Shown here: piece after piece, positions 5,723 to 21,830 of the stretch
How the letters are laid out: each line of letters opens with the position of its first letter
Numbering within the stretch: the first letter of the stretch is position 1
Translations under genes and position numbers: made by a program
Origin: Escherichia coli
Lineage (GTDB): Bacteria > Pseudomonadota > Gammaproteobacteria > Enterobacterales > Enterobacteriaceae
Direction: 5' to 3' (one strand)
Assembly: GCF_013315695.1 (NCBI RefSeq)
Contig: NZ_CP054353.1
DNA: 64,000 nucleotides
Notes under the pieces: generated by a model
Databases searched by the model: none
Seen by the model: the letters and a program-made list of their open reading frames with translations, nothing else
What the model was told of the DNA's origin: nothing

Positions 5723-5807
5723 TCACCTTTCCCGGATTAAACGCTTTTTTGCCCGGTGGCATGGTGCTACCGGCGATCACAAACGGTTAATTATGACACA
5801 AATTGAC

Positions 5808-5823
5808 CTGAATGAATATACAG
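5808..5823. promoter_or_regulatory. LexA (SOS) box in the divergent uvrA-ssb control region
   Basis: Minus-strand reading CTGTATATTCATTCAG matches the CTGT-N8-ACAG operator; known to control uvrA and ssb. Confidence 0.7.
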
Positions 5824-5976
5824 TATTGGAATGCATTACCCGGAGTGTTGTGTAACAATGTCTGGCCAGGTTTGTTTCCCGGAACCGAGGTCACAACATA
5901 GTAAAAGCGCTATTGGTAATGGTACAATCGCGCGTTTACACTTATTCAGAACGATTTTTTTTCAGGAGACACGAAC

Positions 5977-6513
5977 ATGGCCAGCAGAGGCGTAAACAAG
6001 GTTATTCTCGTTGGTAATCTGGGTCAGGACCCGGAAGTACGCTACATGCCAAATGGTGGCGCAGTTGCCAACATTACGCTGGCTACTTCCGAATCCTGGC
6101 GTGACAAAGCGACCGGCGAGATGAAAGAGCAGACTGAATGGCACCGCGTTGTGCTGTTCGGCAAACTGGCAGAAGTAGCCAGCGAATATCTGCGTAAAGG
6201 TTCTCAGGTTTATATCGAAGGTCAGCTGCGTACCCGCAAATGGACCGATCAATCCGGTCAGGATCGCTACACCACAGAAGTCGTGGTGAACGTTGGCGGC
6301 ACCATGCAGATGCTGGGTGGTCGTCAGGGTGGTGGCGCTCCGGCAGGTGGCAATATCGGTGGTGGTCAGCCGCAGGGTGGTTGGGGTCAGCCTCAGCAGC
6401 CGCAGGGTGGCAATCAGTTCAGCGGCGGCGCGCAGTCTCGCCCGCAGCAGTCCGCTCCGGCAGCGCCGTCTAACGAGCCGCCGATGGACTTTGATGACGA
6501 TATTCCGTTCTAG
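5977..6513 (+). CDS. ssb: Single-stranded DNA-binding protein (178 aa)
   Basis: [32 protein letters not shown]... OB-fold N-terminus, Gly/Gln/Pro-rich linker, acidic tip DFDDDIPF. Confidence 0.97.
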
Positions 6514-6551
6514 AGTTAACTTGTGAGTTATTTGTAAAGAATCCATACGCA

Positions 6552-6580
6552 GGCCCCTGTTAATTCAGGGGTTTTTTGTT
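6552..6580 (+). terminator. Intrinsic terminator of ssb
   Basis: Hairpin caggcccctg-ttaattc-aggggttttttg. Confidence 0.7.
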
Positions 6581-6650
6581 TCTATCGTCGGAAAAAGTGT
6601 CTTGTATAAATTGGTGATTTTTCACATAAAGTGTACCTTGTAATTGTGTA

Positions 6651-7919
6651 ATGTTTATGGGGTGTGAGTGCATGGAAAAGAACTACAGAGTTACAACATT
6701 TGTCATGGATAGTGGCGAGCGCTATTGCATGGTAGTGGATCGTGCTTCTGGGCTTCCCATGTATTACCCCACTCTGTTTCTAACAACTCAAATCCGCAAT
6801 AGAGAGGATGCTTTTTCAACGATGTTGGCGGCGGCTAACAACCTGGTTATGTTGTTACGCTTTGTAGAGAGTCGCGACATTGACCTTGAGCAGCGGTTTT
6901 TGACCAAAGACTTCTTCAAGCCACATGAGCTGGATGATCTGCGAGATTTTGCTCAGTGCAAACAAAGAAAGGGGCCATTAACTGTGTCCTCTACCTCTTG
7001 GTTGGCCGATGCGATGACCGATATCGTTGATAACGGGACACAGCATTCCCGGCTAACAACGTTTGCCAACTATTTACACTGGTATGCGATGCATATCTTA
7101 AAGACGACAGAACTGGAAGTTGTCGAAAAGATCAATGCTATGGCGGCGCAGATAAAGACGCGCCGACCATCTAAAAAGCGCAGAAACCACGACTTACAAG
7201 ACAGGTCATTGAGTGATGTTCAATTGGACGCGCTATTTGAAGTCATCCAGCCTAGATCAGAGTTAAACCCTTTCTCAATAGATGTGCAGCGCCGCAATCG
7301 GCTGATGATCTTACTTCTGTTTTATCTTGGCATCCGAGGTGGTGAATTATTAAATATAAGAATACAGGACATAGATTTTAGCGCTAACAGGATCCGTATC
7401 GTTAGGAGAGCAGATGAACAAGCTGACTCTAGAACCAATGAGCCTAATGCTAAAACTAGAGAACGGCTCTTACCGTTGGCTGAATCCTTAGCTCAAGAAC
7501 TGCATAGTTATATCCTTCAAGATCGCCGGAAAGTCAGAAATGCGAAGAAAAATGACTATCTGTTTGTAACTTACAAGAGTGGACCAACTCTGGGAAATCC
7601 TATCTCCAAAGGGGGATATCATAAAATTTTTTCCGTAGTCAGGTCTATATCACCGCAATTGTATGCAGCGACAGGACATTCGCTCCGCCACACTTGGAAT
7701 CGCAAGTTTTCAGAAAGAATGGATGCCATGAATGAGCAAGTCAGCGAGGAACGCCAAGAGCAACTTCGTTCGTACTTAATGGGCTGGAGAGATGGCTCGG
7801 GAACCGCAGCGACTTACAACAAGCGTTTCATTCGGCAAAAAGGTTTTGAGGCCGCCTTGGCATTACAAGCAGGTAACGGCACTAGCTTGCCAGAGGACTT
7901 CAAGGATGACCATGAATAA
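6651..7919 (+). CDS. Tyrosine recombinase 1 of trio (integrase family, 422 aa; start may be the internal Met at 6672)
   Basis: Catalytic signature seen in translation: ...GIRGGELLNI... (Arg), HSLRHTW (His-x-x-Arg), LMGWRDGSGTAATYNKRF (Tyr nucleophile). Confidence 0.8.
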   Translation: MFMGCECMEKNYRVTTFVMDSGERYCMVVDRASGLPMYYPTLFLTTQIRNREDAFSTMLAAANNLVMLLRFVESRDIDLEQRFLTKDFFKPHELDDLRDFAQCKQRKGPLTVSSTSWLADAMTDIVDNGTQHSRLTTFANYLHWYAMHILKTTELEVVEKINAMAAQIKTRRPSKKRRNHDLQDRSLSDVQLDALFEVIQPRSELNPFSIDVQRRNRLMILLLFYLGIRGGELLNIRIQDIDFSANRIRIVRRADEQADSRTNEPNAKTRERLLPLAESLAQELHSYILQDRRKVRNAKKNDYLFVTYKSGPTLGNPISKGGYHKIFSVVRSISPQLYAATGHSLRHTWNRKFSERMDAMNEQVSEERQEQLRSYLMGWRDGSGTAATYNKRFIRQKGFEAALALQAGNGTSLPEDFKDDHE

Positions 7920-9444
7920 CCTCTTACTTGGGTTAGTACCAGAACGAATCCGTGCCAGGGCCAATGGCTACTCTTTTCTGTTGTATGACACATCGTGGAC
8001 ATTGGATAGAAATATCACTATTAATCTTGCTGATATTCACCATTACTTGTCAGATGGGACGCTAGATGGCTGCCTGCGTACACTGGCGTTTTATGCATCC
8101 AATCGTTCTTCTTCTCATACAAAAAATATTCTTGAACGGTTTCAGCACATGCTGCGTGAGACTGACGCGAGAGAAATTACTGATACGGTATTGATTAATT
8201 ATCGGTCGATGCTGTCGCCTGCAACAGAATGGTATCTAGCAACCATCCGTGGCTTTCTTCGATCCTGGCACGAACTGGGCTATCCCGGCATCAGTAAGGA
8301 GGTGAACCGCTTGCTAGATGGCTGGACGCTAAAGGGTAATCGTAAGGGGGATGCGGTTAAGCGCATGGATCCTCAAGAGGGGCCACTGACGGATAATGAG
8401 CTGACAGCGTTTAACGAGGGGGCTGTTCGGGCTTATGAAAAGAGCTTAATTACTATAGCTGAGTTGGCTATAGCACTTGGCACCAGTCATACAGGACGTC
8501 GTCCCATTCAGATCTCGCTGCTTCGTGTGGTCGATGTCCTTTGTGGTAAAAATGGAAAGGGAGAGCCCTTCTATGTGTTGAATGTGCCGCGAGCCAAGCA
8601 GCGCAGCAGCTCTTTCCGAATAAACTTCAAACCATTTGCAATATCACTGGAACTATGGGCAATCCTGAGTGCTCAGGCAAGAAATGCGATTGCGCAGGTT
8701 GAAAATCGTTTGGGGTTTGAATTGCAGGAAGATGACCGGCAGCAAATCCCTCTTTTTCCTGATCTTGATGTGTTAGATGCCGTCCAATCTCCTTATGAAT
8801 TCCGCCAACTGCATGCTACCGACAAACTCCACATTCCCGCCGCAGAGATAACCGACACCCTCCAATACATCGTAGAAAAGTCCGACATCCGGTCGGAACG
8901 TACCGGTGAGCTATTACATATCAATGCTCGTCGTTTTCGTTATACCACAGGCACACGAGCTGCCCGGGAAGGCTTTGGCGAGCTGGTGATTGCGGAACTG
9001 CTTGACCACGCGGACACCCAAAACGCAGGCGTTTACATCAAGAATATCCCCGAGCATGTGAAAAAGCTTGATGAGGCGGTTGGCTTCCAATTAGCACCAT
9101 ACGCTCAGGCCTTTGTCGGGGCACTTGTCGATTCAGAGAGAGACGCGCATCGAGGTAACGACCCTACCAGTCGTATTCGGACCGAAATGGGTCAGGGTGT
9201 TGGTACTTGTGGAGAACATGGCTTTTGTGGTGCCAATGTTCCTATTCCTTGCTACACCTGCATGCATTTCCAGCCTTGGCTGGACGGCCCACATGAAGAT
9301 GTCTATCAAGGACTGCTCAACGAACGTGAACGGGTGAAAGAGATAACTGGCGACATCCAGATTGCTGCCGTACTTGATCGCAGTATTATCGCGCTGGCAG
9401 ATGTGATCATGCGTTGTGCAAAACGTCGTGAAGAGCTTAGTTAA
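7906..9444 (+). CDS. Tyrosine recombinase 2 of trio (about 513 aa)
   Basis: C-terminal region with RRFRYTTGTRAAREG and LLDHADTQNAGVYI (R/H...Y pattern); ATG at 7906 or 7912 overlaps the upstream stop at 7917-7919. The ORF-track start at 7792 is rejected as an overlap artefact. Confidence 0.75.
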   Translation: MTMNNLLLGLVPERIRARANGYSFLLYDTSWTLDRNITINLADIHHYLSDGTLDGCLRTLAFYASNRSSSHTKNILERFQHMLRETDAREITDTVLINYRSMLSPATEWYLATIRGFLRSWHELGYPGISKEVNRLLDGWTLKGNRKGDAVKRMDPQEGPLTDNELTAFNEGAVRAYEKSLITIAELAIALGTSHTGRRPIQISLLRVVDVLCGKNGKGEPFYVLNVPRAKQRSSSFRINFKPFAISLELWAILSAQARNAIAQVENRLGFELQEDDRQQIPLFPDLDVLDAVQSPYEFRQLHATDKLHIPAAEITDTLQYIVEKSDIRSERTGELLHINARRFRYTTGTRAAREGFGELVIAELLDHADTQNAGVYIKNIPEHVKKLDEAVGFQLAPYAQAFVGALVDSERDAHRGNDPTSRIRTEMGQGVGTCGEHGFCGANVPIPCYTCMHFQPWLDGPHEDVYQGLLNERERVKEITGDIQIAAVLDRSIIALADVIMRCAKRREELS

Positions 9445-9460
9445 CAGGGAGCAATAACCA

Positions 9461-11494
9461 ATGGCTGAGATTTTCCTGTTTAAGCCAAAGGCTACGCTGA
9501 CAGCAGCAGAAAACCTTGAAGCATTCATATCCCAGTGCCGAGATCAATTGACTGTATTCGGCTCTGATCTCACTTGGGAAGATCCTGTTTGGCCAAACAT
9601 AACTGTATTTGCCAAGTTGGGCATTATTACGAGAAAACCCATACTGGAAGAGACGCAAGACCCTGCTTTCATTGATTTTGCCAAAGCCTATTTCCGTTAC
9701 CAGCAGGGGCATAGCCTCTCTAGGGCAAAGAATGAAAGTAAAGCCCTCCGTGCGGTTGAGGCGGCTTTGCTTCAAGTAAATGGAAACGCAAATATTGATG
9801 GCCTGTCGATTTCTGTGCTGGATGAAGCAGCTGAATTGGCAAAGCATTACTACTCCGATGGCTCCGCATATCATTGTGGCCGTGAGATTGAGCGGCTGGC
9901 TAAGTTTGTAGCTGAAAACCAGCTTGTATCAAGTGCTGTACAAAATTGGGTCAATCCAATTAAACGTGCAGAGGATAAGAACAAAACGAGCAGAAAGGCG
10001 AAGAAAAATAGGGAAGATAAACTTCCGAGTGATATTGCTCTTAATGCGTTGGCGGAAATTTTTGCCAACGACCCAATTCATGAGCGAGACATATTTACAA
10101 CATCGGTTTTTGCCATGTTGATGTCGGCACCTTCACGTATTACTGAGGTGTTAGCACTGCCTGTGGATTGCGAGGTTTTTGAAACGGATCGTGAAGGGAT
10201 AGAACGATATGGTTGGCGTTTTTTTGCGGGGAAAGGCTATGAGGGTGATATCAAATGGATACCCACCGTGATGGTCGGTATAGCTAAGACAGCCGTAGCT
10301 AGAGCTAGAGTGCTCTCTGAAAATGCACGACAACTGGCCAAGTGGATCGAGAAACACCCGAATAAGTTTTACCGCCATGCTAACTGTCCCAGTGTAGCCG
10401 ATGATGAGCCATTGACGATGAAGCAGGTTTGTATGGCGCTCGGTTTTGCACATTACTCTAAAAAGACGTGCAGGTCGTGTCTTGGTAATCGAGGTTTAGC
10501 TAAAGAGGATGGTGTACATACTCTAAATAGCCTGTGGCAGCACACAATGGCGCGTTTACCGGATGGCTTTCCGTGGTTTGATAAAGACAAGGGAATTAGG
10601 TACAGCAATGCCTTGTTTGTACTGAACGTAAATCAGTTCCACGGGAACAGAGGATGCATACCAGTTGAGTTACATAAGCCAACCAATAATTTCTTCAACA
10701 GTGATCTGACGCCTCGTCTGTCCTTGAAAGGAAAACATGCCAGTATCTTTGATCGCCATGGTTACCATGCTGTAAACGGAGAGCCGGTGAAATTAACCTC
10801 ACATCAGGCTCGACACCTGCTCAACACCATTATCCAGCGCGGTGGCCTGTCAAACTTGGAAATTGCCAAGTGGTCGGGGCGGGCAGATGTGAAACAGAAT
10901 CGAACTTACAACCACATGACTGAATACGAACTGGTTGGCATTGCTGAACGCCTTGATCCCACAACAGCGCTATTTGGGCCTGCTGGCGAGGTGGCAAAGC
11001 ATCTGCCCGTGACTATGCAGGAGTTCAATACCTTAGAGCATGCCGCAGTCCATGTGACGGAGTATGGCTACTGTGTGCATGATTACACCATGAGTCCTTG
11101 TGAGAAATTCCGAGATTGCGTCAATTGTACCGAACAGGTTTGCATCAAAGGCGATGATGCTGAAAAGTTGGATCGCATTAAGATACGTCTGGAGAAATTA
11201 GAGCGACTGTTTTTTCTTGCTGACGCAGCAGTGGAAAGTGGTGAGATAGGAACTGATCGCTGGTATCAGTACCACAAGAAAACTGTTACCCGGCTTCGTG
11301 AACTAGTGGCTATTTTAGAGAATCCAGACATTGAAAATGGTGTCCAGATTAAGCTCCGGGGCAATGATTTCAGCCAGCTTCGCCGTGTTGTCGCAAAGAC
11401 GTCTATTGTGGCCATCGAGCAAAAAGGCAAAGAAAGTGAAGAAGCTGTGATGTTAGATGATTTGACAACTTTGTTAGGAGGTGGCCTTGGCTAA
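9461..11494 (+). CDS. Tyrosine recombinase 3 of trio (677 aa)
   Basis: LTSHQARHLLNT (H-x-x-R-H) and WSGRADVKQNRTYNHM (Tyr) motifs; RBS-like cagggag 8 nt upstream of ATG. Confidence 0.75.
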   Translation: MAEIFLFKPKATLTAAENLEAFISQCRDQLTVFGSDLTWEDPVWPNITVFAKLGIITRKPILEETQDPAFIDFAKAYFRYQQGHSLSRAKNESKALRAVEAALLQVNGNANIDGLSISVLDEAAELAKHYYSDGSAYHCGREIERLAKFVAENQLVSSAVQNWVNPIKRAEDKNKTSRKAKKNREDKLPSDIALNALAEIFANDPIHERDIFTTSVFAMLMSAPSRITEVLALPVDCEVFETDREGIERYGWRFFAGKGYEGDIKWIPTVMVGIAKTAVARARVLSENARQLAKWIEKHPNKFYRHANCPSVADDEPLTMKQVCMALGFAHYSKKTCRSCLGNRGLAKEDGVHTLNSLWQHTMARLPDGFPWFDKDKGIRYSNALFVLNVNQFHGNRGCIPVELHKPTNNFFNSDLTPRLSLKGKHASIFDRHGYHAVNGEPVKLTSHQARHLLNTIIQRGGLSNLEIAKWSGRADVKQNRTYNHMTEYELVGIAERLDPTTALFGPAGEVAKHLPVTMQEFNTLEHAAVHVTEYGYCVHDYTMSPCEKFRDCVNCTEQVCIKGDDAEKLDRIKIRLEKLERLFFLADAAVESGEIGTDRWYQYHKKTVTRLRELVAILENPDIENGVQIKLRGNDFSQLRRVVAKTSIVAIEQKGKESEEAVMLDDLTTLLGGGLG

Positions 11495-11906
11495 GCATCT
11501 GGACAATAGAGACATTAACGCCATCGTAAATCTAATTCGAGGATGGAAGGAACCAAAACTGTCCTGGTCAGCAATTTGTGAGGCGGCAGAACCATTGGTC
11601 GGAAAGTTGCCGTCAAGACAGTCCCTTAATGCACATGAGGCAATAGTGACTGCCTATCAAACAAAGAAAGAGGCGCTTAAAGGCCGTGGCCCCAAAAATC
11701 CGCGTCCAGCTAGTTTGAACATTGCAGCCGCGAGGATTGTGAATCTTGAAAGCGAAATCGAAGAGCTTAAGGAAGAGAACCGGAGGTACAAACAACAGTT
11801 TGTGATCTGGCAATACAATGCATACAAATATGGAATGACAGAACATCAACTTAATGCGCAGCTGACAAAGATTGACCGTGAGCGCTCTGATGGAGAAAGA
11901 AGATAG
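11481..11906 (+). CDS. Small protein (about 140 aa) coupled to recombinase 3; possible ginD-like accessory factor
   Basis: ORF overlaps the 3' end of recombinase 3 (GTG 11481 or TTG 11487 just after aggagg); C-terminal half has coiled-coil character (LESEIEELKEENRRYKQQ). Function not recognisable. Confidence 0.5.
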   Translation: MALAKHLDNRDINAIVNLIRGWKEPKLSWSAICEAAEPLVGKLPSRQSLNAHEAIVTAYQTKKEALKGRGPKNPRPASLNIAAARIVNLESEIEELKEENRRYKQQFVIWQYNAYKYGMTEHQLNAQLTKIDRERSDGERR

Positions 11907-11981
11907 TTGCTGAGTACGATATCGAGGGTACATTTCTCTGTGTAGGGGTAGTTATTTACAAAAAAATAGGAGAATAATTAA

Positions 11982-14900
11982 ATGGTCAAACCAAACTGGG
12001 ATAACTTTAAAGCTAAATTTAGTGAGAATCCTCAAGGTAATTTTGAGTGGTTTTGCTACTTGTTGTTCTGTCAAGAATTCAAAATGCCCGCAGGTATATT
12101 TAGATATAAGAATCAATCTGGTATCGAAACTAATCCAATAACCAAAGATAATGAAATTATCGGTTGGCAATCTAAATTCTATGACACAAAATTGTCGGAT
12201 AACAAAGCTGATCTTATAGAAATGATTGAGAAAAGCAAAAAGGCTTATCCAGGATTAAGTAAAATCATTTTCTATACTAATCAAGAGTGGGGGCAGGGGA
12301 GAAAGTCCCATGAACCTGAAGGCGATAAGAACGCTGATAATTATTTGGAAACTGTCGGAAATAGTAACGATCCCAAAATAAAAATTGAAGTTGATCAGAA
12401 AGCATATGAGTCGGGTATCGAAATAGTATGGAGAGTTGCTAGTTTTTTTGAATCACCGTTTGTAATAGTTGAGAATGAAAAGATTGCTAAACATTTCTTC
12501 TCCCTTAATGAAAGCATCTTTGATTTATTAGAAGAAAAGCGCAAGCACACAGAAAATGTTTTATATGAAATTCAAACCAATATAGAGTTCAAAGACAGAA
12601 GTATTGAAATTGACAGACGACATTGTATAGAACTTCTACATGAGAATCTAGTTCAGAAAAAAATTGTCATCGTCAGCGGAGAAGGTGGGGTTGGAAAAAC
12701 AGCAGTTATCAAAAAAATTTATGAAGCAGAAAAACAATACACTCCTTTCTATGTCTTTAAGGCTAGCGAGTTTAAAAAGGACAGTATTAATGAGCTATTC
12801 GGTGCGCATGGCTTAGACGATTTCTCTAATGCTCATCAAGACGAATTACGTAAAGTCATAGTCGTAGATTCTGCTGAAAAGCTTTTAGAACTGACCAATA
12901 TCGATCCTTTTAAAGAATTCCTGACTGTTTTAATAAAGGATAAATGGCAGGTTGTTTTCACAACCCGTAACAACTACTTGGCAGATCTGAACTATGCTTT
13001 CATAGATATTTATAATATAACTCCTGGAAACTTAGTAATAAAGAACCTTGAACGCGGCGAGCTAATAGAGTTATCTGATAACAATGGATTTAGCCTTCCT
13101 CAAGATGTTCGATTATTAGAACTAATCAAAAATCCATTTTATCTAAGTGAATATTTGAGGTTCTATACCGGTGAAAGCATCGATTATGTGAGCTTCAAAG
13201 AAAAGCTTTGGAATAAGATTATTGTCAAAAATAAACCTTCTCGGGAGCAGTGTTTCTTAGCGACTGCTTTTCAGCGGGCTAGTGAGGGCCAATTTTTTGT
13301 CTCCCCGGCATGTGATACTGGAATTTTAGATGAGTTAGTTAAAGACGGAATTGTCGGCTATGAAGCTGCTGGTTACTTCATTACACATGATATATACGAG
13401 GAATGGGCATTAGAAAAGAAAATTTCTGTCGATTATATCCGTAAAGCGAACAATAACGAGTTCTTCGAAAAAATAGGAGAATCACTTCCTGTTCGCCGTA
13501 GTTTTCGGAATTGGATATCTGAACGATTGCTTTTAGATGACCAGTCCATAAAGCCTTTTATCGCAGAAATAGTCTGTGGAGAAGGAATATCAAATTTTTG
13601 GAAAGACGAGTTATGGGTAGCTGTCCTTCTTTCCGATAATTCAAGCATATTTTTTAATTACTTTAAAAGATATTTACTTAGTAGTGACCAGAATCTATTA
13701 AAAAGACTTACTTTCTTATTGAGGCTTGCTTGCAAGGACGTTGATTACGATCTGCTTAAACAGTTAGGTGTAAGTAATTCAGATCTGCTTTCCATTAAAT
13801 ATGTTCTTACTAAGCCTAAGGGAACTGGTTGGCAGAGTGTGATCCAATTTATCTATGAAAATTTAGATGAAATAGGGATCAGAAATATTAATTTTATACT
13901 TCCTGTGATTCAGGAGTGGAATCAAAGAAACAAAGTGGGTGAAACGACTCGATTATCTAGTTTGATAGCCCTAAAATATTATCAATGGACTGTAGATGAG
14001 GATGTCTATTTATCCGGAAGGGATAATGAGAAAAATATTCTGCATACGATTCTTCATGGGGCGGCCATGATTAAACCTGAAATGGAAGAGGTTTTAGTTA
14101 AGGTTCTTAAAAATAGGTGGAACGAGCACGGTACCCCATATTTCGACCTTATGACCTTAATCCTTACTGACTTAGATTCATATCCGGTTTGGGCATCTCT
14201 CCCGGAATATGTTCTACAATTGGCAGATCTGTTCTGGTATCGGCCACTTAAAGAAACAGGCGAACGTTATCACAGTATGGATATTGAAGATGAGTTCGGT
14301 CTATTTAGGTCTCATCACGACTATTATCCAGAAAGTCCATATCAGACTCCTATATATTGGTTACTACAATCACAGTTCAAAAAAACAATAGACTTTATTC
14401 TTGATTTTACGAACAAGACAACGATATGTTTTGCCCACTCCCATTTTGCTAAAAACGAAATTGAAGAAGTCGATGTCTTTATTGAAGAAGGAAAGTTTAT
14501 AAAGCAATATATATGCAATCGTCTGTGGTGCTCATATCGAGGAACACAGGTCTCTACCTACTTACTTTCATCAATTCATATGGCATTGGAAAAATTTTTT
14601 CTTGAGAATTTTAAAAATGCAGACTCGAAAGTGTTGGAAAGTTGGCTTCTTTTCTTGTTAAGAAATACCAAGTCAGCTTCTATTTCTGCAGTAGTTACGA
14701 GTATTGTACTTGCATTCCCTGAGAAGACATTCAATGTAGCTAAAGTACTATTCCAAACAAAGGATTTCTTCCGTTTTGATATGAATCGAATGGTTCTAGA
14801 CAGAACACATAAAAGTTCATTAATCTCCCTCAGGGATGGCTTTGGCGGTACAGATTACAGAAACTCTTTGCACGAAGAAGATAGAATTAAAGCTTGCGAT

Positions 14901-16745
14901 GATGTGCATAGAAATACTTATCTTGAAAATCTTGCCTTGCATTATCAAATTTTCAGGAGTGAAAATGTAACGGAGAAAGATGTCATTGAAAGGCAACAAG
15001 TGCTCTGGGGTATTTTCGATAAATACTATAATCAGCTTCCAGATGAAGCTCAAGAAACTGAAGCCGATAAGACGTGGAGGCTCTGCTTGGCAAGAATGGA
15101 TCGGCGAAAGATGAAAATAACTACCAAGGAGAAAGATGAAGGGATTGAGATATCATTCAATCCTGAGATTGACCCTAAACTAAAGCAATATAGTGAGGAA
15201 GCAATAAAGAAAAACTCCGAGCATATGAAGTATGTAACGCTGAAACTATGGGCAAGCTATAAAAGAGAAAAGGATGAACGTTATAAGAATTATGGAATGT
15301 ATGAGGACAATCCGCAAATTGCTTTACAAGAGACCAAAGAAATAATAAAAAAGCTTAATGAGGAAGGGGGTGAAGATTTCAGACTATTAAATGGTAATAT
15401 ACCAGCAGACGTTTGTTCTGTATTACTGTTAGATTACTTTAATCAGTTGAATAATGAAGAGAGAGAATATTGTAAAGATATTGTTCTAGCATATTCTCAA
15501 CTTCCGTTGAAGGAAGGCTATAATTATCAGGTACAAGATGGGACAACCTCGGCAATTTCAGCCTTACCCGTGATTTATCATAATTATCCAATGGAAAGGG
15601 AGACTATAAAAACAATATTACTTTTGACACTGTTTAATGACCACTCTATTGGAATGGCAGGTGGGCGCTACTCAGTATTTCCTAGTATGGTGATTCATAA
15701 ATTATGGCTAGACTATTTTGATGATATGCAGTCTCTATTGTTTGGTTTTTTGATTTTAAAGCCAAAGTATGTAATTCTTTCAAGAAAAATCATTCATGAA
15801 AGTTATCGTCAAGTAGACTATGACATTAAAAAAATAAATATTAATAAGGTGTTTTTAAATAACTATAAGCATTGCATATCAAATGTCATCGATAATAAAA
15901 TATCTATAGATGATTTGGGAAGTATAGATATAGTTGATCTACATATTTTGAACACAGCTTTCCAATTAATTCCAGTTGATACTGTTAATATTGAACATAA
16001 GCAATTGGTTTCCTTAATTGTTAAAAGATTTTCTACAAGCCTATTGTCAAGTGTTCGAGAAGATAGAGTTGATTACGCTCTTCGGCAGTCTTTCTTGGAA
16101 AGATTTGCCTACTTTACGCTTCATGCGCCCGTGAGCGATATTCCCGATTATATAAAACCTTTTCTTGATGGTTTCAACGGTTCAGAGCCTATTTCAGAGT
16201 TATTTAAAAAATTTATTCTCGTCGAAGATAGATTAAATACTTACGCCAAATTTTGGAAGGTTTGGGATTTGTTTTTTGATAAAGTGGTTACTTTGTGCAA
16301 GGATGGAGATAGGTATTGGTATGTAGATAAAATTATAAAAAGTTACCTTTTTGCTGAATCTCCATGGAAAGAAAACTCTAATGGTTGGCACACATTTAAA
16401 GATAGCAATAGTCAATTCTTTTGCGATGTATCTAGGACTATGGGCCATTGCCCTTCAACTTTATATTCTCTTGCCAAATCTTTGAATAACATTGCCAGTT
16501 GCTATCTTAATCAAGGTATAACCTGGCTTTCAGAAATGTTGTCGGTTAATAAAAAGCTATGGGAAAAGAAATTGGAAAATGATACTGTTTATTTTTTAGA
16601 ATGTTTGGTTAGGCGGTATATTAACACTGAGCGTGAGCGAATTAGACGAACCAAACAGTTGAAAGAAGAGGTCTTAGTAATATTGGATTTTTTGGTAGAG
16701 AAAGGATCTGTTGTTGGTTATATGTCACGGGAAAATATTCTGTGA
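11982..16745 (+). CDS. Large STAND-type P-loop NTPase (1587 aa): N-terminal unknown domain (about 1-220), NTPase core (about 225-330), about 1250-aa helical C-terminal region; candidate anti-phage (Avs-like) protein
   Basis: Strong RBS (aggag, 9-nt spacer). Walker A GEGGVGKT (aa 233-240), Walker B VIVVDSAE (aa 292-299), TTR motif in QVVFTTRN (aa 323-330) typical of STAND NTPases. Very AT-rich codon usage; no transmembrane or secretion signals noticed. Confidence 0.8.
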   Translation: MVKPNWDNFKAKFSENPQGNFEWFCYLLFCQEFKMPAGIFRYKNQSGIETNPITKDNEIIGWQSKFYDTKLSDNKADLIEMIEKSKKAYPGLSKIIFYTNQEWGQGRKSHEPEGDKNADNYLETVGNSNDPKIKIEVDQKAYESGIEIVWRVASFFESPFVIVENEKIAKHFFSLNESIFDLLEEKRKHTENVLYEIQTNIEFKDRSIEIDRRHCIELLHENLVQKKIVIVSGEGGVGKTAVIKKIYEAEKQYTPFYVFKASEFKKDSINELFGAHGLDDFSNAHQDELRKVIVVDSAEKLLELTNIDPFKEFLTVLIKDKWQVVFTTRNNYLADLNYAFIDIYNITPGNLVIKNLERGELIELSDNNGFSLPQDVRLLELIKNPFYLSEYLRFYTGESIDYVSFKEKLWNKIIVKNKPSREQCFLATAFQRASEGQFFVSPACDTGILDELVKDGIVGYEAAGYFITHDIYEEWALEKKISVDYIRKANNNEFFEKIGESLPVRRSFRNWISERLLLDDQSIKPFIAEIVCGEGISNFWKDELWVAVLLSDNSSIFFNYFKRYLLSSDQNLLKRLTFLLRLACKDVDYDLLKQLGVSNSDLLSIKYVLTKPKGTGWQSVIQFIYENLDEIGIRNINFILPVIQEWNQRNKVGETTRLSSLIALKYYQWTVDEDVYLSGRDNEKNILHTILHGAAMIKPEMEEVLVKVLKNRWNEHGTPYFDLMTLILTDLDSYPVWASLPEYVLQLADLFWYRPLKETGERYHSMDIEDEFGLFRSHHDYYPESPYQTPIYWLLQSQFKKTIDFILDFTNKTTICFAHSHFAKNEIEEVDVFIEEGKFIKQYICNRLWCSYRGTQVSTYLLSSIHMALEKFFLENFKNADSKVLESWLLFLLRNTKSASISAVVTSIVLAFPEKTFNVAKVLFQTKDFFRFDMNRMVLDRTHKSSLISLRDGFGGTDYRNSLHEEDRIKACDDVHRNTYLENLALHYQIFRSENVTEKDVIERQQVLWGIFDKYYNQLPDEAQETEADKTWRLCLARMDRRKMKITTKEKDEGIEISFNPEIDPKLKQYSEEAIKKNSEHMKYVTLKLWASYKREKDERYKNYGMYEDNPQIALQETKEIIKKLNEEGGEDFRLLNGNIPADVCSVLLLDYFNQLNNEEREYCKDIVLAYSQLPLKEGYNYQVQDGTTSAISALPVIYHNYPMERETIKTILLLTLFNDHSIGMAGGRYSVFPSMVIHKLWLDYFDDMQSLLFGFLILKPKYVILSRKIIHESYRQVDYDIKKININKVFLNNYKHCISNVIDNKISIDDLGSIDIVDLHILNTAFQLIPVDTVNIEHKQLVSLIVKRFSTSLLSSVREDRVDYALRQSFLERFAYFTLHAPVSDIPDYIKPFLDGFNGSEPISELFKKFILVEDRLNTYAKFWKVWDLFFDKVVTLCKDGDRYWYVDKIIKSYLFAESPWKENSNGWHTFKDSNSQFFCDVSRTMGHCPSTLYSLAKSLNNIASCYLNQGITWLSEMLSVNKKLWEKKLENDTVYFLECLVRRYINTERERIRRTKQLKEEVLVILDFLVEKGSVVGYMSRENIL

Positions 16746-16790
16746 TGTAGTTGAAAATAATAATTTTAATGAGAGCTTTTCCAATTTAGG

Positions 16791-16815
16791 CTCCAGGGAT
16801 TGGAGCCTTTTTATT
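16791..16815 (+). terminator. Intrinsic terminator after the large NTPase gene
   Basis: Hairpin ggctccaggg-a-ttggagcc followed by tttttatt. Confidence 0.6.
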
Positions 16816-16840
16816 ATCGAAAAGATTAATATCTTATAAG

Positions 16841-17059
16841 TCAATCAGTAAAACGCAGCAAAGCTCGTTGCTCTTGAATGTTCACTCCGTGATAAATTCT
16901 TTGATTACCACATAAATAACAAGAACAAGCACAAGGGGTGCAGTAAATTTTCCCTACAACTTTTTCAGTTTTAGCCAACGCAATTCGATATGTTTTTCTC
17001 TTAGATTTTAACCGAGATATATGATGACGACGCCATGCCCGATTTCTAACCATTTCCAT
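16841..17059 (-). CDS. Small basic Cys-rich hypothetical protein (72 aa)
   Basis: ORF with GGAG-type RBS; Arg/Lys-rich N-terminus and a CTPCACSCYLCG cysteine cluster (possible zinc ribbon). No family recognised. Confidence 0.3.
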   Translation of the reverse strand: MEMVRNRAWRRHHISRLKSKRKTYRIALAKTEKVVGKIYCTPCACSCYLCGNQRIYHGVNIQEQRALLRFTD

Positions 17060-17283
17060 TCACTCCAATTTTCTACCGCGGTGTTATACCGCGCCCGTAT
17101 CAATCTTTGGAGTTCGATATCGATCTGACCTTTCATGAATACCTCGGAATTTATCAATAAAGTGAGTGCTATATCATAGCTTATGGGATGAAAGTTTGAT
17201 ATTTAGCACTTTTCAGCTTTAGGTAAAGCTGTCCTCAATAAAGCTAATTTCTTGTTTATTAATGGAATTTCTATGTGGAAGTG

Positions 17284-18105
17284 TTAGAAATCCTGTTTTA
17301 CTTTATCCATCGTTAAAACTTTACTTATTATATAAGGATCATAATTTCTTATACTCATAAGGCAATTTATCAAATTGGAAACGTGGCTATCATCAGGTAT
17401 AAGTATATATTTAATATCATCGAAAGAAAAACCAATGCCAAATTCAGAGAATTTTTTACTTAAGACGGCCTTCTGGTTAGGTTCCACCACTCGCTCTAAA
17501 TTTAGGCTAGGCCATAAATCGCCAACAAACGGATGCGGTACATATCTCCATTCTTTTTCGTCAGCGTAGATATAATTCTCAATGGTTTTTTCGTTCGTCC
17601 TTTCTAATTTCCCTTTATAATTTTTCATATAGCGTAATAAATTATAAAGGTCAGCGTACTCTTCTTTAAGGCTTTCAAAATACTTACGCTCTTTATTATC
17701 AAGGATATGCCTTTTCGACCATAGCGGAATTAACGCATCCTTTAGTTTTCTAATTCTTTTATTATACTTTGAAAATAATTCACTGCCTTGATTCATGTAT
17801 AGAACGGGATGGAGATCATTTTTCTCAGCCCATTCTTTTGTTAACCCAAATCCAAATTCACCATATTTTCCACTATGATCTTTAATCTGAGAAAGCTTGA
17901 TGTCACAGAATGAAACCATTGGTACTGCGAAATTTCTTCTTCCTTTTACTCCGACTATGCGTTCACGGGCAAGAAATGGTTTAAAATAGAGTTCTGTTAA
18001 AATGCTATAGAATGCCTCTTCATTTTTAGTAAAGTGAAACAACGTTGTTGGATGTAAACTATTAACTGCTTGTATAACTGTTTCTTGGTTTTCTATAGCA
18101 CTCAT
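17284..18105 (-). CDS. AbiGi-like abortive-infection family protein (273 aa)
   Basis: N-terminal LFHFTKNEEAFYSILTE... resembles, by recall, the FHFT-type N-terminus of AbiGi-family proteins; AT-rich; convergent with the NTPase gene. Confidence 0.55.
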   Translation of the reverse strand: MSAIENQETVIQAVNSLHPTTLFHFTKNEEAFYSILTELYFKPFLARERIVGVKGRRNFAVPMVSFCDIKLSQIKDHSGKYGEFGFGLTKEWAEKNDLHPVLYMNQGSELFSKYNKRIRKLKDALIPLWSKRHILDNKERKYFESLKEEYADLYNLLRYMKNYKGKLERTNEKTIENYIYADEKEWRYVPHPFVGDLWPSLNLERVVEPNQKAVLSKKFSEFGIGFSFDDIKYILIPDDSHVSNLINCLMSIRNYDPYIISKVLTMDKVKQDF

Positions 18106-18483
18106 ATATTAACTGTTCCATAGTGTAAAACCTGACTTAGCAAAGGTTATCATACTAGTCTTTGTACTGTAAGCACACTTGGTTTAATTCCACGCACTTT
18201 TTGAGATTTCCGGTTTTTTGATCTCTTACCAAAATCTATGCCAGATTGAATCAAAGGTCCGAGCTGGGTCACCAAAAAAAGTAAAATTATGCACTTTGAT
18301 AGATTATATTTTAACTAAATTCTTTACAGTTAAATCATTTCTTATGCCTTAGTTTCTGATAAAAAAGGTTTTTTTTCACGATTTATAAGTATCAGGTTAT
18401 GTGAACCGTTCTGATTTGTCGTTAAAACAATAGGTTATATTGTTTTAAGGTGGATGATTAAAGCATCTGCCAGCCATAAAAAA

Positions 18484-18506
18484 GAAGCCTCCGTTTTGGA
18501 GGCTTC
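18484..18506 (-). terminator. Terminator downstream of yjcB (backbone)
   Basis: Hairpin gaagcctccg-ttt-tggaggcttc with an A-run on the plus strand (U-run on the minus strand), immediately after the yjcB stop. Confidence 0.5.
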
Positions 18507-18512
18507 TACATA

Positions 18513-18794
18513 TCAAGTCAAAATCATTGGCCATTGTGGCGGTGTCTGATTCATCTCTTCTATCATCACCGACTCGATGTTGTGCCAGATGGCGGTGATA
18601 TCCGCCATTGTGATGCCAAGCAACCCCATTGCGAACCAGCAGGCAGAAACCACGCCCAGACCGCTGCTGATCACTGCAAGCCCGACATAATCAGACCGAC
18701 GAAAACGGATGTTGAGTGTGCTGGCCAGAAACATCATTACGGCACTAAGAAGTTGCCAGCGAAGAAGAACCACGCCAGTGGTGAGGGTAGCCAT
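18513..18794 (-). CDS. yjcB: Small inner-membrane protein YjcB (93 aa)
   Basis: Hydrophobic ORF MATLTTGVVLLRWQLL...; position after ssb as in K-12. The ORF track extends to 18893, but a 93-aa product starting at the internal Met is expected. Confidence 0.8.
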   Translation of the reverse strand: MATLTTGVVLLRWQLLSAVMMFLASTLNIRFRRSDYVGLAVISSGLGVVSACWFAMGLLGITMADITAIWHNIESVMIEEMNQTPPQWPMILT

Positions 18795-19223
18795 CAAACA
18801 ATTCCTCTGAAAAGAGCCGATGCCTCGGACAGCGCGGCGTTGTTCACGGGAGGCGTGATACAATCTGGCTATCGCGGGGCTTGCAGAACACAAAAAAGAA
18901 ACACTCTGTTTGTTTCATTAATTTTGTGAACTATATCACAATTGATTGTTTGTTAGCCAGATTAGGCCGTGACTTTTATTGCCGTACAGATTATGTGTTT
19001 TTTCAGCGGCATTAAGGGTATATCTTCCCACCGCCTCTGCATTCCTGTAGGAAATTAGTTTTGAATATCAATGAATTATTTTTATTCAGGTGACGATTAA
19101 AAAGGTATCAATTTCAAATCAGGCAAAAGTGCTATTTATACCGTAAGATTTATCTAAAGACGTCGATAACCAGGGTTCTCGCCTTGCAATGACCGGGTAT
19201 AAACAAGCAGGAAATTGATAGCA

Positions 19224-20810
19224 ATGAGTCATCGTGCACGACACCAATTACTGGCGTTGCCGGGCATTATCTTTTTAGTTCTCTTTCCCATCATTCTGTC
19301 GCTATGGATTGCCTTCTTTTGGGCAAAATCAGAAGTGAATAATCAGCTCCGAACCTTTGCTCAGCTGGCGTTGGATAAATCTGAGCTGGTCATTCGTCAG
19401 GCAGATTTAGTGAGCGATGCAGCTGAACGCTATCAGGGGCAAGTTTGCACCCCAGCCCATCAAAAGCGAATGTTGAATATTATTCGTGGCTATCTTTATA
19501 TTAATGAATTGATCTATGCCCGTGATAACCATTTTTTATGCTCATCGCTGATAGCGCCTGTAAACGGCTATACGATTGCACCGGCCGATTATAAGCGTGA
19601 ACCTAACGTTTCTATCTATTATTACCGCGATACGCCTTTTTTCTCTGGCTATAAAATGACCTATATGCAGCGGGGAAATTATGTGGCGGTCATCAACCCT
19701 CTCTTCTGGAGTGAAGTGATGTCTGATGATCCGACATTGCAATGGGGTGTATATGATACGGTAACGAAAACCTTTTTCTCGTTAAGCAACGAGGCCTCGG
19801 CAGCAACGTTTTCTCCACTGATTCATTTGAAGGATTTAACTGTACAAAGAAATGGCTATTTATATGCGACAGTTTATTCGACAAAACGCCCAATTGCGGC
19901 CATTGTTGCGACTTCATATCAACGTCTTATAGCGCATTTTTATAATCATCTTATTTTTGCGTTACCCGCCGGTATTTTGGGGAGTCTTGTTCTGCTATTA
20001 CTCTGGCTACGTATTCGACAAAACTATTTGTCTCCCAAACGCAAATTGCAACGCGCCCTCGAAAAACATCAACTTTGCCTTTATTACCAGCCAATAATCA
20101 ATATCAAAACAGAAAAATGTATCGGGGCTGAAGCATTGTTACGTTGGCCTGGTGAGCAGGGGCAAGTAATGAATCCGGCAGAGTTTATTCCGCTGGCAGA
20201 AAAGGAGGGGATGATCGGACAGGTAACTGATTATGTTATTGATAATGTCTTCCGCGATCTGGGCGCATACCTGGCAACACATGCCGATCGCTATGTTTCT
20301 ATTAACCTGTCGGCCTCCGATTTTCATACGTCACGGTTGATAGCGCGAACCAATCAGAAAACAGAGCAATACGCGGTGCGTCCACAGCAAATTAAATTTG
20401 AAGTGACTGAACATGCATTTCTTGATGTCGACAAAATGACACCAATTATTCTGGCTTTCCGCCAGGCTGGTTACGAAGTGGCAATTGATGATTTTGGTAT
20501 TGGCTACTCTAACTTGCATAACCTTAAATCATTGAATGTCGATATTTTGAAAATCGATAAATCGTTTGTTGAGACGCTGACCACCCATAAAACCAGTCAT
20601 TTGATTGCGGAACACATCATCGAGCTGGCGCACAGTCTGGGGTTAAAAACGATCGCTGAAGGCGTCGAAACTGAGGAACAGGTTAACTGGCTGCGCAAAC
20701 GCGGCGTGCGCTATTGCCAGGGATGGTTCTTTGCGAAGGCGATGCCGCCGCAGGTGTTTATGCAATGGATGGAGCAATTACCCGCGCGGGAGTTAACGCG
20801 CGGGCAATAA
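19224..20810 (+). CDS. pdeC: Cyclic-di-GMP phosphodiesterase (N-terminal membrane/periplasmic sensor domain plus C-terminal EAL domain)
   Basis: EAL-domain hallmarks ([31 protein letters not shown]) seen in translation; two TM segments flank a periplasmic domain. Confidence 0.9.
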
Positions 20811-20812
20811 AA

Positions 20813-21686: not shown

Positions 21687-21830
21687 AGCGCCACAAGGGC
21701 GCTTTAGTTTGTTTTCCGGTCTTTGTCTTTCTCTCTATCCCGCTGGTACACAGGAGGGTTTCCCCCGACGTCAACACACCTCATTCGAGCACGTGGTGGA
21801 GGTTCCGGTTGGTGTTGATGCTTTAATTGT
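21687..21830 (-). ncRNA. ryjA: Candidate small RNA RyjA (convergent with the soxR 3' end); coordinates approximate
   Basis: From recall of the K-12 map only (sRNA between soxR and the ghxP gene); the soxR terminator hairpin aaagcgccacaagggcgcttt is present. Not verifiable by eye. Confidence 0.3.

Follow-up and report, generated by a model that had tools for sequence, protein, structure and literature searches.

What separates ssb from yjcB in this Escherichia coli strain, and how did it come to lie there? In MG1655, the two genes are 98 bp apart, whereas in the window analyzed here (a single stretch of 64,000 nucleotides), they are parted by about 12 kb of non-backbone DNA, as a first-pass annotation of the sequence had claimed. 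That annotation set the borders at 6598 and 18370. Alignment of the window with MG1655 and with an identical plasmid copy moved them to 6512 and 18412, giving an insert of 11,901 bp flanked by a CCGTTCT direct repeat. The reconstructed empty chromosomal site is present at 100% identity over 400 bp in other E. coli genomes. The target gene, the junctions, and the flanks are as follows.

5977 to 6513, plus strand: ssb (annotated ssb1), the gene targeted in the host, encoding the same SSB protein as in K-12
6505 to 6511, no strand: attL core CCGTTCT, left copy of the 7-bp direct repeat and crossover region (MG1655, plasmid, and prophage junctions)
6512 to 18412, plus strand: complete element, very probably a GInt, 11,901 bp (MG1655 comparison; 0 differences from the plasmid copy; reconstructed empty site matched)
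6551 to 6574, plus strand: element-borne hairpin terminator, now terminating ssb (terminator scan; kept in 86 to 87%-identical elements and missing from the MG1655 site)
18406 to 18412, no strand: attR core CCGTTCT; next come (T)GA, the remnant of the native ssb stop codon, and the backbone (MG1655, prophage, and plasmid junctions)
18513 to 18794, minus strand: yjcB, the right-flank backbone gene, with its own terminator at 18483 to 18507 (annotation and terminator scan)

The attachment site consists of the final codons of ssb (...GAT ATT CCG TTC). At its left edge, the insert interrupts the ssb stop codon, which changes from TGA to TAG and leaves the SSB protein unaltered; the new stop codon (6511 to 6513) is a hybrid in which the T is host derived and the AG is island derived. 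An insertion of a related element into a prophage gene, described below, narrows the exchange to TTCT within the core. Because the insert begins at 6512, the hairpin at 6551 to 6574 is island DNA and not the backbone ssb terminator that had been annotated at 6552 to 6580. The G+C content is 0.466 in the gin module and 0.346 in the cargo, against 0.50 to 0.53 in the backbone. The window holds no tRNA gene and, by annotation and PHROG search, no phage structural gene, as had been noted from the sequence at the outset.

The left 5.4 kb of the island is a ginABCD-type operon, in agreement with that class in gene order, gene sizes, and translational coupling. All four reading frames are intact, and the layout first described, three tandem recombinase genes with a small coupled gene and then defense cargo, is present in full.

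6672 to 7919, plus strand: ginA, 415-aa tyrosine recombinase with R222, H336, R339, H340, W372, and Y382 (Pfam Phage_integrase, E = 5.5e-15; PHROG integrase, E = 2.5e-22)
7906 to 9444, plus strand: ginB, 512-aa recombinase, with a 14-nt overlap with ginA (NCBIfam NF041502, 678 bits against a cutoff of 350)
9461 to 11494, plus strand: ginC, 677 aa, tyrosine-recombinase fold (residue conservation, AlphaFold2, Foldseek, and the GinC orthologue list of PMC10214605)
11487 to 11906, plus strand: ginD, 139-aa helical protein, with an 8-nt overlap with ginC (conservation directly 3' of ginC; AlphaFold2 model)

The Pfam match of GinB is weak (E = 0.014), and an alignment of homologues shows R198/R199, K231, R343, R345, H368, and Y377 to be invariant; a C-terminal cysteine cluster follows (C435, C441, C449, and C452). 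GinC carries conserved R226, K258/K265, H448, R451, W471, and Y483 and then a Cys/His cluster (C538, C547, C553, and C556). Across 84 representatives at 28 to 55% identity, R451 and Y483 are invariant and the other residues are conserved in at least 90%. The AlphaFold2 model of GinC (pLDDT 90.7) returned Cre, XerH, IntI, XerA, and Tn1549 Int as its top Foldseek PDB matches, all with a probability of 1.0. In published descriptions, the catalytic motif of GinC is partly or wholly missing, and its first arginine is absent according to Bardaji et al. (PMC5385486), whereas the clade of this island keeps a candidate for it, R226. The GinC motif in this clade appears complete, its residues having been assigned by motif conservation and fold rather than by structural superposition. 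GinA, GinB, and GinC thus all retain the R-H-R-Y signature of tyrosine recombinases. The fourth gene lies directly 3' of ginC in 38 of the 39 loci checked, across genera, and we aligned GinD from 34 of those 38 loci with that of the window. Its model (pLDDT 81) shows four short helices at the N terminus and one long helix spanning residues 77 to 114, and searches of Pfam, NCBIfam, and Foldseek gave no match or recognizable fold.

A row of three recombinase genes whose frames overlap or almost touch might also mark a recombinase-in-trio (RIT) element, an alternative raised in the first-pass annotation, or an NCBI "gamma-mobile-trio" element, in either case with unrelated cargo next to it. RITs are compact, are bounded by inverted repeats, and are not known to contain a ginD-like gene or internal cargo. 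The island shares with them the three tyrosine recombinase genes in tandem but fits none of these other traits: ginD is a conserved part of the module, 6.5 kb of cargo lies inside the element borders, and an inverted-repeat scan of the element found no long terminal inverted repeats. We therefore rejected RIT membership. With the GmtY model, which has a cutoff of 340 bits, GinA reaches 17 bits, and the classification in print is GInt (PMC10214605), so that a trio element of either kind is scarcely credible.

The right 6.5 kb of the island is low-GC cargo, for which the expectation of defense genes held.

11982 to 16745, plus strand: avs4 (EcAvs4), the main cargo, a 1,587-aa STAND NTPase and nuclease, antiphage sensor (PDB 8DGF_A, NCBIfam, and PADLOC)
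16788 to 16808, plus strand: hairpin terminator 3' of avs4 (terminator scan)
17284 to 18105, minus strand: AbiGi-family gene, 273 aa, the second cargo gene, without an AbiGii partner (PADLOC AbiGi, E = 1.6e-44)

The Avs4 protein matches PDB 8DGF_A from end to end (3,629 bits); residues 1 to 957 contain 3 substitutions. It also exceeds the NCBIfam Avs4 cutoff (2,066 against 1,500 bits), and PADLOC makes the same call. EcAvs4 is reported (Gao et al. 2022) to cleave DNA once it has sensed the portal protein of a phage. The AbiGi-like protein reaches 45 bits with NCBIfam AbiGI, under the cutoff of 300, and matches PHROG 13416 (E = 3e-98).

Short motifs recur, inverted, at the two ends of the island and are conserved at both ends of family elements.

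6516 to 6539, plus strand: left-end conserved motifs, TTAACTTG (6516 to 6523; family consensus tACCTnag) and TGTAAAG (6533 to 6539) (consensus of 52 ssb-adjacent elements)
18106 to 18405, no strand: AT-rich 3' end of the element, with the inverted left-end motifs CTTTACA (18322 to 18328) and CAGGTTA (18393 to 18399) (inverted-repeat pairs)

The G+C content over 18106 to 18412 is 0.316. The left-end motifs are probably recombinase-binding sites.

Identical or near-identical elements occupy three different genes, the products of which end in DDIPF, each with a matching empty site. Besides the chromosomal copy, strain MSB1_4I carries one behind ssb on a conjugative IncF plasmid, 11,901 bp long and without a single difference from the chromosomal copy; the empty plasmid site occurs elsewhere at 100% identity. 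The third target is a prophage gene encoding a protein with NDDIPF at its C terminus. This gene holds an element of 11,844 bp with a gin operon 99.2% identical, and its empty form is found at 100% identity in 186 genomes. The presence of the same island after ssb on IncF plasmids could suggest that the ssb genes of plasmid and chromosome recombined homologously, carrying a plasmid segment into the chromosome. The chromosomal copy has no flanking plasmid DNA, however, both junctions lie at identical nucleotides in the chromosomal, plasmid, and prophage copies, and the prophage target has only its last few codons in common with ssb. The junction sequences refute such a capture, which we regard as very improbable.

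The island was found whole in 357 of 5,426 complete E. coli genomes (6.6%), and its placements number 405 in 379 genomes. It is not core DNA: the uninterrupted ssb site is present in 4,947 to 4,970 of these genomes (about 91%), with about 8 to 9% of sites occupied. At this chromosomal site, a gin operon of 87% identity also occurs with DRT3 and Hachiman as its cargo instead, and RM, DRT, PifA, and PDC defense systems are the cargo of related elements. Among 62 evaluable relatives from other species, including several Pseudomonas species, 51 lie about 2.9 to 3.0 kb 3' of an open reading frame ending in DD(I/V/L)PF; the Pseudomonas relatives, with GinC proteins 41 to 45% identical, are likewise ssb adjacent.

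Does the island still move? None of the collections searched (the 5,426 E. coli genomes, metagenome contigs, and viral contigs) contained the junction predicted for a circle (or tandem). Several hundred genomes carry the island at >99% identity, many of them in clonal lineages such as ST131, and IS elements break it up in some strains, all of which would suit a now-immobile relic spread by vertical descent and by transfer of larger segments or whole plasmids. Against this, essentially identical elements are precisely inserted in three replicon contexts that are unrelated to one another, and an empty site of 100% identity is present for all three; such a pattern requires recent site-specific insertion. 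The four gin frames are intact, and the catalytic residues are conserved. We consider the relic improbable. Somewhat less so, though still unlikely, is a GInt by sequence that moves by replicative copy-out/copy-in, as do the strand-biased circularizing elements (SEs) and perhaps Tn554, instead of by conservative excision and integration. Chromosomal and plasmid copies coexist in at least three strains (MSB1_4I, MS14385, and KTa008), with 0 of 11,901 bases differing in the first, and placements outnumber the genomes that hold them. Moreover, several strains studied by Bardaji et al. form the circle without a detectable empty site (PMC5385486), which Idola et al. describe as typical of SEs (PMC10214605). 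Two copies would also result, however, if the element were conservatively excised from just one of the copies of a multicopy or replicating plasmid, and GInt and SE proteins cluster apart (PMC10214605).

We propose that GinA, GinB, and GinC together with GinD would recombine the joined ends of the element (attI) with the chromosomal site, by analogy with Pseudomonas GInts (Bardaji et al. 2017). The predicted attI would read ...CAGGTTATGTGAA-CCGTTCT-AGAGTTAACTTG..., and the target here is ATTCC(G/T)TTCT(G/A)A, which encodes the terminal I-P-F of the SSB acidic tail and includes the stop codon. Insertion duplicates the CCGTTCT core, keeps SSB unchanged, and brings in a new stop codon and the element-borne terminator. 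Excision would yield a circle and, as in the Pseudomonas experiments, may require all four gin genes. Seen directly in the present data are the exact junctions, the conserved catalytic residues and recombinase fold, the conserved end motifs, and the three targets with their empty sites.

Taken together, the operon layout, catalytic residues, AT-rich 3' end, ssb site, and published orthologue list bear out the GInt-type reading first suggested, and we hold it highly likely that the island is a ginABCD-type mobile element with Avs4 cargo at the 3' end of ssb. Homology to GInts is based on the published PSI-BLAST list and on the 41 to 45%-identical Pseudomonas relatives of the same layout. The description of such islands as poorly characterized in E. 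coli stands in part: we found no mobility experiment on E. coli GInts in the literature, but the island is already catalogued at this very site (PMC10121019 and PMC10214605). Hochhauser 2023 lists hotspot #39 (yjcB/ssb) as "GInt, AVAST_IV, 12,000 bp, 7 genes" (PMC10121019, Fig 3D and Table S3), for example in strain PPECC42, which in flanking genes, element class, AVAST_IV call, size, and gene count matches ours and is in effect the same island. In that survey, 2.9% of sites were occupied among 1,292 genomes, compared with about 8 to 9% (6.6% of genomes for this island) found here, and it lacked base-level junctions and plasmids, both of which are given here. The identical IncF plasmid copy, the prophage-gene copy, and the empty sites for all three targets go beyond the catalogued facts. 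Idola 2023 includes the island's own ginC and ginD in its GInt orthologue list and places GInts in 7.5% of Escherichia replicons (PMC10214605).

Among the closest known systems are also the Pseudomonas GInts, such as the P. stutzeri DSM 4166 GInt, Pht-PAI, and the ssb-inserted elements of P. syringae UMAF0158 and pv. myricae; the ssb 3' end is a frequent GInt target (Bardaji 2017; PMC5385486). They share with the E. coli island a ginABCD operon at the 5' end with cargo immediately behind ginD, a 3' end rich in AT, and a position at the ssb terminus that does not alter the protein product. The perfect repeat of the E. coli island, at 7 bp, is shorter than the 10- to 17-nt imperfect repeats reported for GInts, and its family has conserved inverted end motifs, whereas Bardaji et al. 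saw no common 3'-end feature (PMC5385486). SEs resemble the island in their four-gene module, small fourth protein, target specificity, and absence of transfer genes, but their second protein, Tfp, lacks the catalytic motif that the island keeps in all three recombinases; SE and GInt proteins form separate clusters, with the island's ginC and ginD in the GInt list (PMC10214605). Bardaji et al. noted a weak similarity between GinD and TnpC of Tn554 (PMC5385486). Tn554 (tnpA, tnpB, and tnpC), from staphylococci (Firmicutes), has two recombinases, compared with three in the E. coli island.

The first-pass annotation had proposed an accessory insert between ssb and yjcB, with edges at 6598 and 18370. 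We read both junctions against the island-free site of E. coli MG1655 (...GACATTCCGTTCTGATTTGTCATTAAAAC...). The left junction in the window is ...GATATTCCGTTCT/AGAGTTAAC... and the right junction is ...GTGAACCGTTCT/GATTTGTCGTTAAAAC..., where a slash marks the point of insertion, so that the insert spans 6512-18412 (11,901 bp). The insert was therefore confirmed with corrected borders, the earlier edges lying 86 bp and 42 bp too far in, and the hairpin at 6551-6574, which had been read as the ssb terminator, belongs to the island. A 7-bp direct repeat, CCGTTCT (attL at 6505-6511 and attR at 18406-18412), bounds the element. The insertion point lies inside the ssb stop codon, which becomes TAG instead of TGA, with no difference between the encoded SSB protein and that of K-12. 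Seven genes of the island separate ssb and yjcB in the window, compared with a 98-bp spacer in MG1655. The features are as follows.

5977-6513, ssb, left neighbour of the island
6516-6523, 6533-6539, 18322-18328 and 18393-18399, end motifs
6672-7919, ginA, 415 aa, Pfam Phage_integrase (E=5.5e-15)
7906-9444, ginB, 512 aa, NCBIfam NF041502 "site-specific integrase" (678 bits, cutoff 350)
9461-11494, ginC, 677 aa, recombinase fold from AlphaFold2 and Foldseek
11487-11906, ginD, 139 aa, overlapping ginC by 8 nt
11982-16745, avs4, first cargo gene, identified from PDB 8DGF chain A, NCBIfam and PADLOC
16788-16808, terminator after avs4
17284-18105, strand opposite to avs4, AbiGi-like gene, second cargo gene
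18513-18794, yjcB, right neighbour of the island

Of 5,426 complete E. coli genomes, 4,947 had no interruption in a 300-bp MG1655 probe spanning the site and 4,970 had none in a 400-bp empty site reconstructed from the flanks of the window, the latter giving many matches at 100% identity. There are 357 E. coli genomes with the whole island, taken as coverage of at least 80% of window 6000-19000, and 373 with the gin module. Because most complete genomes carry the empty site and so few the island, the possibility that this interval is core DNA is ruled out. By G+C content, the recombinase module (0.466) and the cargo (0.346) both fall below the flanks (0.50-0.53). The window contains no tRNA or tmRNA gene; no Rfam family was found inside the island, and the phage collection gave no match. 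Elsewhere in the window, the SraL small RNA (Rfam RF01408, 153 bits) lies at 21679-21819 on the minus strand, under a RefSeq "hypothetical protein" coding sequence beside soxR (WP_001330155.1, about 21673-21939) that may be an over-annotation. The backbone also holds RefSeq pseudogenes with internal stops at about 23632-24978, 47726-49711 and 51603-52583 (IS4 transposase, alkyl/aryl-sulfatase and alsC) and, as expected, the fdhF SECIS element at 42014-42068.

The four gin genes lie on one strand at the 5' end of the island, separated in order by a 14-nt overlap, a 16-nt gap and the 8-nt overlap of ginC and ginD. In GinA the catalytic candidates are R222, H336, R339, H340, W372 and Y382. The Pfam match of GinB is weak; across 25 homologues, its invariant positions include R198/R199, K231, R343, R345, H368, Y377 and a C-terminal Cys cluster. 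GinC had no match in family-model searches, a profile of 20 GinC homologues found no recombinase among PDB sequences, and hhalign comparisons of GinC with GinA and with GinB were insignificant. Since sequence profiles failed, we took the fold of GinC from an AlphaFold2 model (pLDDT 90.7), for which the Foldseek matches in the PDB were exclusively Cre, XerH, IntI, XerA and the Tn1549 integrase, at probability 1.0. The GinC family is large (1,524 representatives at E<=0.001). Among 84 representatives at 28-55% identity, R451 and Y483 are invariant, R226, K258, K265, H448, H452 and W471 are kept at >=90%, and a Cys/His cluster follows the catalytic region. Given these conserved signatures and the GinC fold, the three proteins that had been read as tyrosine recombinases all have the recombinase catalytic residues, assigned here from conserved motifs and fold rather than by superposition.

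A conserved Cys/His cluster sits just past the catalytic tyrosine in both GinC (residues 531-556, with C538, C547, C553 and C556) and GinB (residues 435-454, with C435, C441, C449 and C452). The clusters look like a zinc-binding module, and we know of no description of one for GInts. One protein of the representative library (P0121, 1,194 aa) matches GinC at 43% identity over its own residues 519-1191, with a further stretch also matched, and may be either a fusion of GinB with GinC or an artefact of gene calling. GinC has been described as missing the first arginine (Bardaji et al. 2017, PMC5385486) and as having no catalytic motif (Idola et al. 2023, PMC10214605); in this clade, its catalytic set appears to be complete.

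The fourth gene, ginD, directly follows ginC in 38 of 39 checked relatives, 34 of which were aligned together with the window. In Pfam its product gave only coiled-coil noise, and NCBIfam, PADLOC and PHROGs had no match. The predicted model has four short helices and one long helix, and all its Foldseek matches in the PDB were at E>=2.4, giving no fold match.

The cargo begins right after ginD, with the avs4 start 75 nt past the ginD stop. The avs4 product matched residues 1-1587 of EcAvs4 (PDB 8DGF_A) at 3,629 bits, with three substitutions within the first 957 residues, and it passed the Avs4 family test (NF041815, 2,066 bits against a cutoff of 1,500; PADLOC Avs4, 2,361 bits). The AbiGi-like gene matched PADLOC AbiGi at E=1.6e-44 and the NCBIfam model at only 45 bits against a cutoff of 300. 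We rejected a complete AbiG system, which would be an AbiGi-AbiGii pair: the AbiGi-like gene stands alone, and within the following 540 bp there is just one unannotated ORF, of 72 aa, without a family match. This ORF (16841-17059, minus strand), which is flanked by the avs4 terminator and by the AbiGi-like gene at its 3' end, had no NCBIfam or PADLOC match and may not be a gene, since one plasmid variant has an IS2 inserted into the avs4-AbiGi spacer. The 3' end of the island (18106-18412, 307 bp) is AT-rich (G+C 0.316), and its alignment to the element of strain Y5 (87% identical) is limited to about the last 110 bp. At the ssb/yjcB site of Y5 (4317-18105 of locus L005, NZ_CP013483.1), the gin operon, 87% identical to that of the window, is followed by DRT3a/b and Hachiman (HamA and a helicase) in place of Avs4 and AbiGi, so that cargo swaps on one recombinase backbone.

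We counted 405 occurrences of the gin module in 379 E. coli genomes, 30 of these occurrences being plasmid-borne. In PLSDB, it was found in 38 plasmid records from E. coli, Salmonella, Klebsiella and Citrobacter, 29 of them at >=99% identity and 27 predicted to be conjugative; the whole island was at least 80% covered in 32 records from E. coli and Salmonella, most of them 99.7-99.9% identical. In the rows examined, the plasmid copies always lie directly after the leading-region ssb. The chromosome of strain MSB1_4I matches the window at 100% identity, and plasmid 3 of the same strain (NZ_LR898876.1; IncFIA/FIC, MOBF, conjugative) carries a copy of the 11,901-bp island with zero differences, as follows.

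9001-20901 of the plasmid locus (L006, NZ_LR898876.1), island copy corresponding to window 6512-18412

The plasmid insertion reads ...GACATTCCGTTCT/AG...GAACCGTTCT/AACGAAAG and lies between the leading-region ssb and a DUF905 gene. Chromosomal and plasmid copies of the island also occur together in strains MS14385 and KTa008. Homologous capture from a plasmid was considered and rejected.

In strain NIPH17_0020, the island has a copy in a prophage that lies between rspB and ydfJ, with a 99.2% identical gin region and 11,844 bp between the matching ends. This copy follows a 326-aa protein, WP_023147794.1, that ends NDDIPF (11022-12002 of locus L004, NZ_AP024560.1) and is a third target of the island. 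The protein had no PHROG or PADLOC match, and a nuclease-like motif can be made out by eye in its C-terminal half; it may be a mimic of the SSB tail. The ends of the prophage copy read ATTCCTTTCT/AG at attL and GAACCGTTCT/AA at attR, making the hybrid nature of the att repeats visible as CCTTTCT at attL and CCGTTCT at attR and confining strand exchange to TTCT. The junction nucleotides are the same in the chromosomal, plasmid and prophage copies. Empty sites rebuilt for the plasmid and the prophage were found at 100% identity over 400 bp, the former in many IncF plasmids and the latter, with the 326-aa gene uninterrupted, in 186 E. coli genomes. We considered and rejected a prophage or satellite reading of the island.

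We scanned loci from one genome per species, using the closer GinC alignment (A1) since the 84-sequence alignment was too diverse. The scan gave 73 loci with GinC relatives, from Gamma- and Betaproteobacteria and some MAGs. An ORF ending in DD(I/V/L)PF stops 2.74-3.05 kb upstream of ginC, directly before ginA, in 51 of 62 evaluable loci (at 2.86-3.05 kb in all but one). Several Pseudomonas species are among these 51, with GinC 41-45% identical and the same layout. A contig of an alphaproteobacterial assembly (Martelella alba, NZ_SZPQ01000029.1; L008) has an 87%-identical GinC beside an enterobacterial-type ssb tail, and this contig is probably contamination of the assembly or else reflects very recent transfer.

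Two motifs recur at 52 left ends, both located downstream of the stop codon: tACCTnag spans +5 to +12 and TGTAAAG lies at about +20. Candidate right ends matching ATCAGGTA-N(6-8)-CCNTTYT, in which ATCAGGTA is the inverted partner of tACCTnag, occurred at 11 of 44 loci, compared with 0 of 44 on the control strand. These inverted end motifs are short and emerged only from the family comparison. The layout looks like a 7-bp overlap region between imperfect inverted recombinase-binding arms. The cargo of the relatives differs at the same point after ginD: the eight with delimited ends carry DRT3; PDC-S06/S28; a type I RM system with a UG5-nitrilase reverse transcriptase; a type II RM system; a type III RM system with PifA; or methyltransferases, one of the eight having no PADLOC match and one only a weak match.

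The comparison of occupied and empty sites suggests that the island is, or recently was, mobile and site-specific; by analogy with the Pseudomonas GInts, it would excise to form a circle. The predicted circle junction reads ...TATCAGGTTATGTGAACCGTTCTAGAGTTAACTTGTGAG..., and this circle or tandem junction, searched as a 30-mer and a 120-mer, was absent from assembled E. coli genomes, metagenome contigs and viral contigs. The perfect repeat of 7 bp is shorter than the 10-17 nt reported for GInt repeats. The use of a prophage gene shows that the true target is the codons for I-P-F-stop rather than ssb as such, with ATTCCGTTCTGA and ATTCCTTTCTAA as candidate target sequences. As these codons specify the acidic tip of SSB, it is possible, although we hold the idea tentatively, that the GInt hops among chromosomal ssb, the leading-region ssb of IncF plasmids and prophage genes that mimic the SSB tail, that the plasmid copy would be the missing transfer route of GInts, and that a position amid the early-expressed genes of the leading region might switch the gin operon on at plasmid entry into a new cell. 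The identical copies within one strain, the roughly 30 island-bearing plasmids and the precise empty sites are the basis of this proposal. The ssb gene is LexA-regulated.

If hopping does take place, GInts, which carry no transfer genes of their own, would gain a route of transfer in the plasmid copy. Strains in which the chromosomal copy is paired with an identical plasmid copy make GInt movement genetically tractable in E. coli and could be used to address movement within and between cells, as well as copying, questions left open by the work in Pseudomonas. Carriers of the island, and so of a potent anti-phage sensor, include clinically important E. coli lineages (among them strains labelled O25b:H4-ST131) and about 30 plasmids from E. 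coli and Salmonella, most of which are conjugative; the island therefore bears on the pace at which phage resistance spreads and on phage therapy.

The element is already known from the literature, as are its site and its cargo. GInts are defined by ginABCD, cargo after ginD, an AT-rich 3' end that is short and poorly conserved, and flanking imperfect repeats, the att repeats being attB/attI hybrids (Bardaji et al. 2017, PMC5385486). In Pseudomonas, circle formation was shown and required all four gin genes, 6 of 11 examined GInts lay at the end of ssb with the product unaltered, and horizontal transfer could not be shown (PMC5385486). The yjcB/ssb interval is defence hotspot #39, "occupied by GInt" and filled at 38 of 1,292 sites, and the tables list E. 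coli PPECC42 at this hotspot with a GInt of 12,000 bp and seven genes carrying AVAST_IV (Hochhauser et al. 2023, PMC10121019). GInts were found in 7.5% of Escherichia replicons (PMC10214605), and another island at ssb/yjcB, of 18 kb, carries Detocs and a dGTPase (PMC11728103). Since the GInts, their preference for the 3' end of ssb, the hotspot and EcAvs4 are all published, our finding is a re-discovery. Literature that links a GInt or Avs4 to IncF or to plasmid ssb was sought, and nothing pertinent came up beyond Bardaji et al. (2017), which, with incomplete coverage, is absence of evidence only. Four observations have no counterpart in the literature searched: a strain with the chromosomal island also has an identical copy on a conjugative plasmid, a prophage gene serves as a target, the ends carry conserved inverted motifs, and GinC of this clade has an apparently complete catalytic set.

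The first-pass annotation had likened the layout to GInts or to recombinase-in-trio (RIT) elements. An RIT is a compact unit of three recombinases with inverted-repeat borders and without an extra conserved gene or internal cargo. We rejected this class because the island has a conserved fourth gene and 6.5 kb of cargo inside its borders, and a repeat search of the island found no long terminal inverted repeats. A gamma-mobile-trio (GmtX/Y/Z) was likewise rejected, GinA scoring 17 bits with GmtY (NF040693) against a cutoff of 340 and GinB, GinC and GinD matching no Gmt model in NCBIfam. The GInt reading is supported by the ginABCD layout, the cargo after ginD, the AT-rich 3' end and site-specific insertion with short repeats. 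Homology to reference GInts runs through the Pseudomonas relatives of the same layout and a published orthologue list. That list, from PSI-BLAST seeded with GinC and GinD of P. stutzeri DSM 4166, holds NZ_CP021454.1 4544661-4546694 and 4544249-4544509 (PMC10214605, Additional file 10), and these coordinates map exactly to ginC and ginD of the island in strain H105. The RefSeq protein accessions of MSB1_4I are absent from the Idola supplement; other strains carry different WP numbers.

[quoted passage not shown] The SE module is intA-tfp-intB-srap, in which Tfp lacks catalytic residues, whereas the second protein of the island, GinB, keeps R, K, R, H and Y, and published networks split GInts from SEs and place ginC and ginD of the island among the GInts (PMC10214605). 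Within the GInts themselves, no common 3' feature was found in those of Bardaji et al., whereas the island and its relatives have conserved inverted end motifs.
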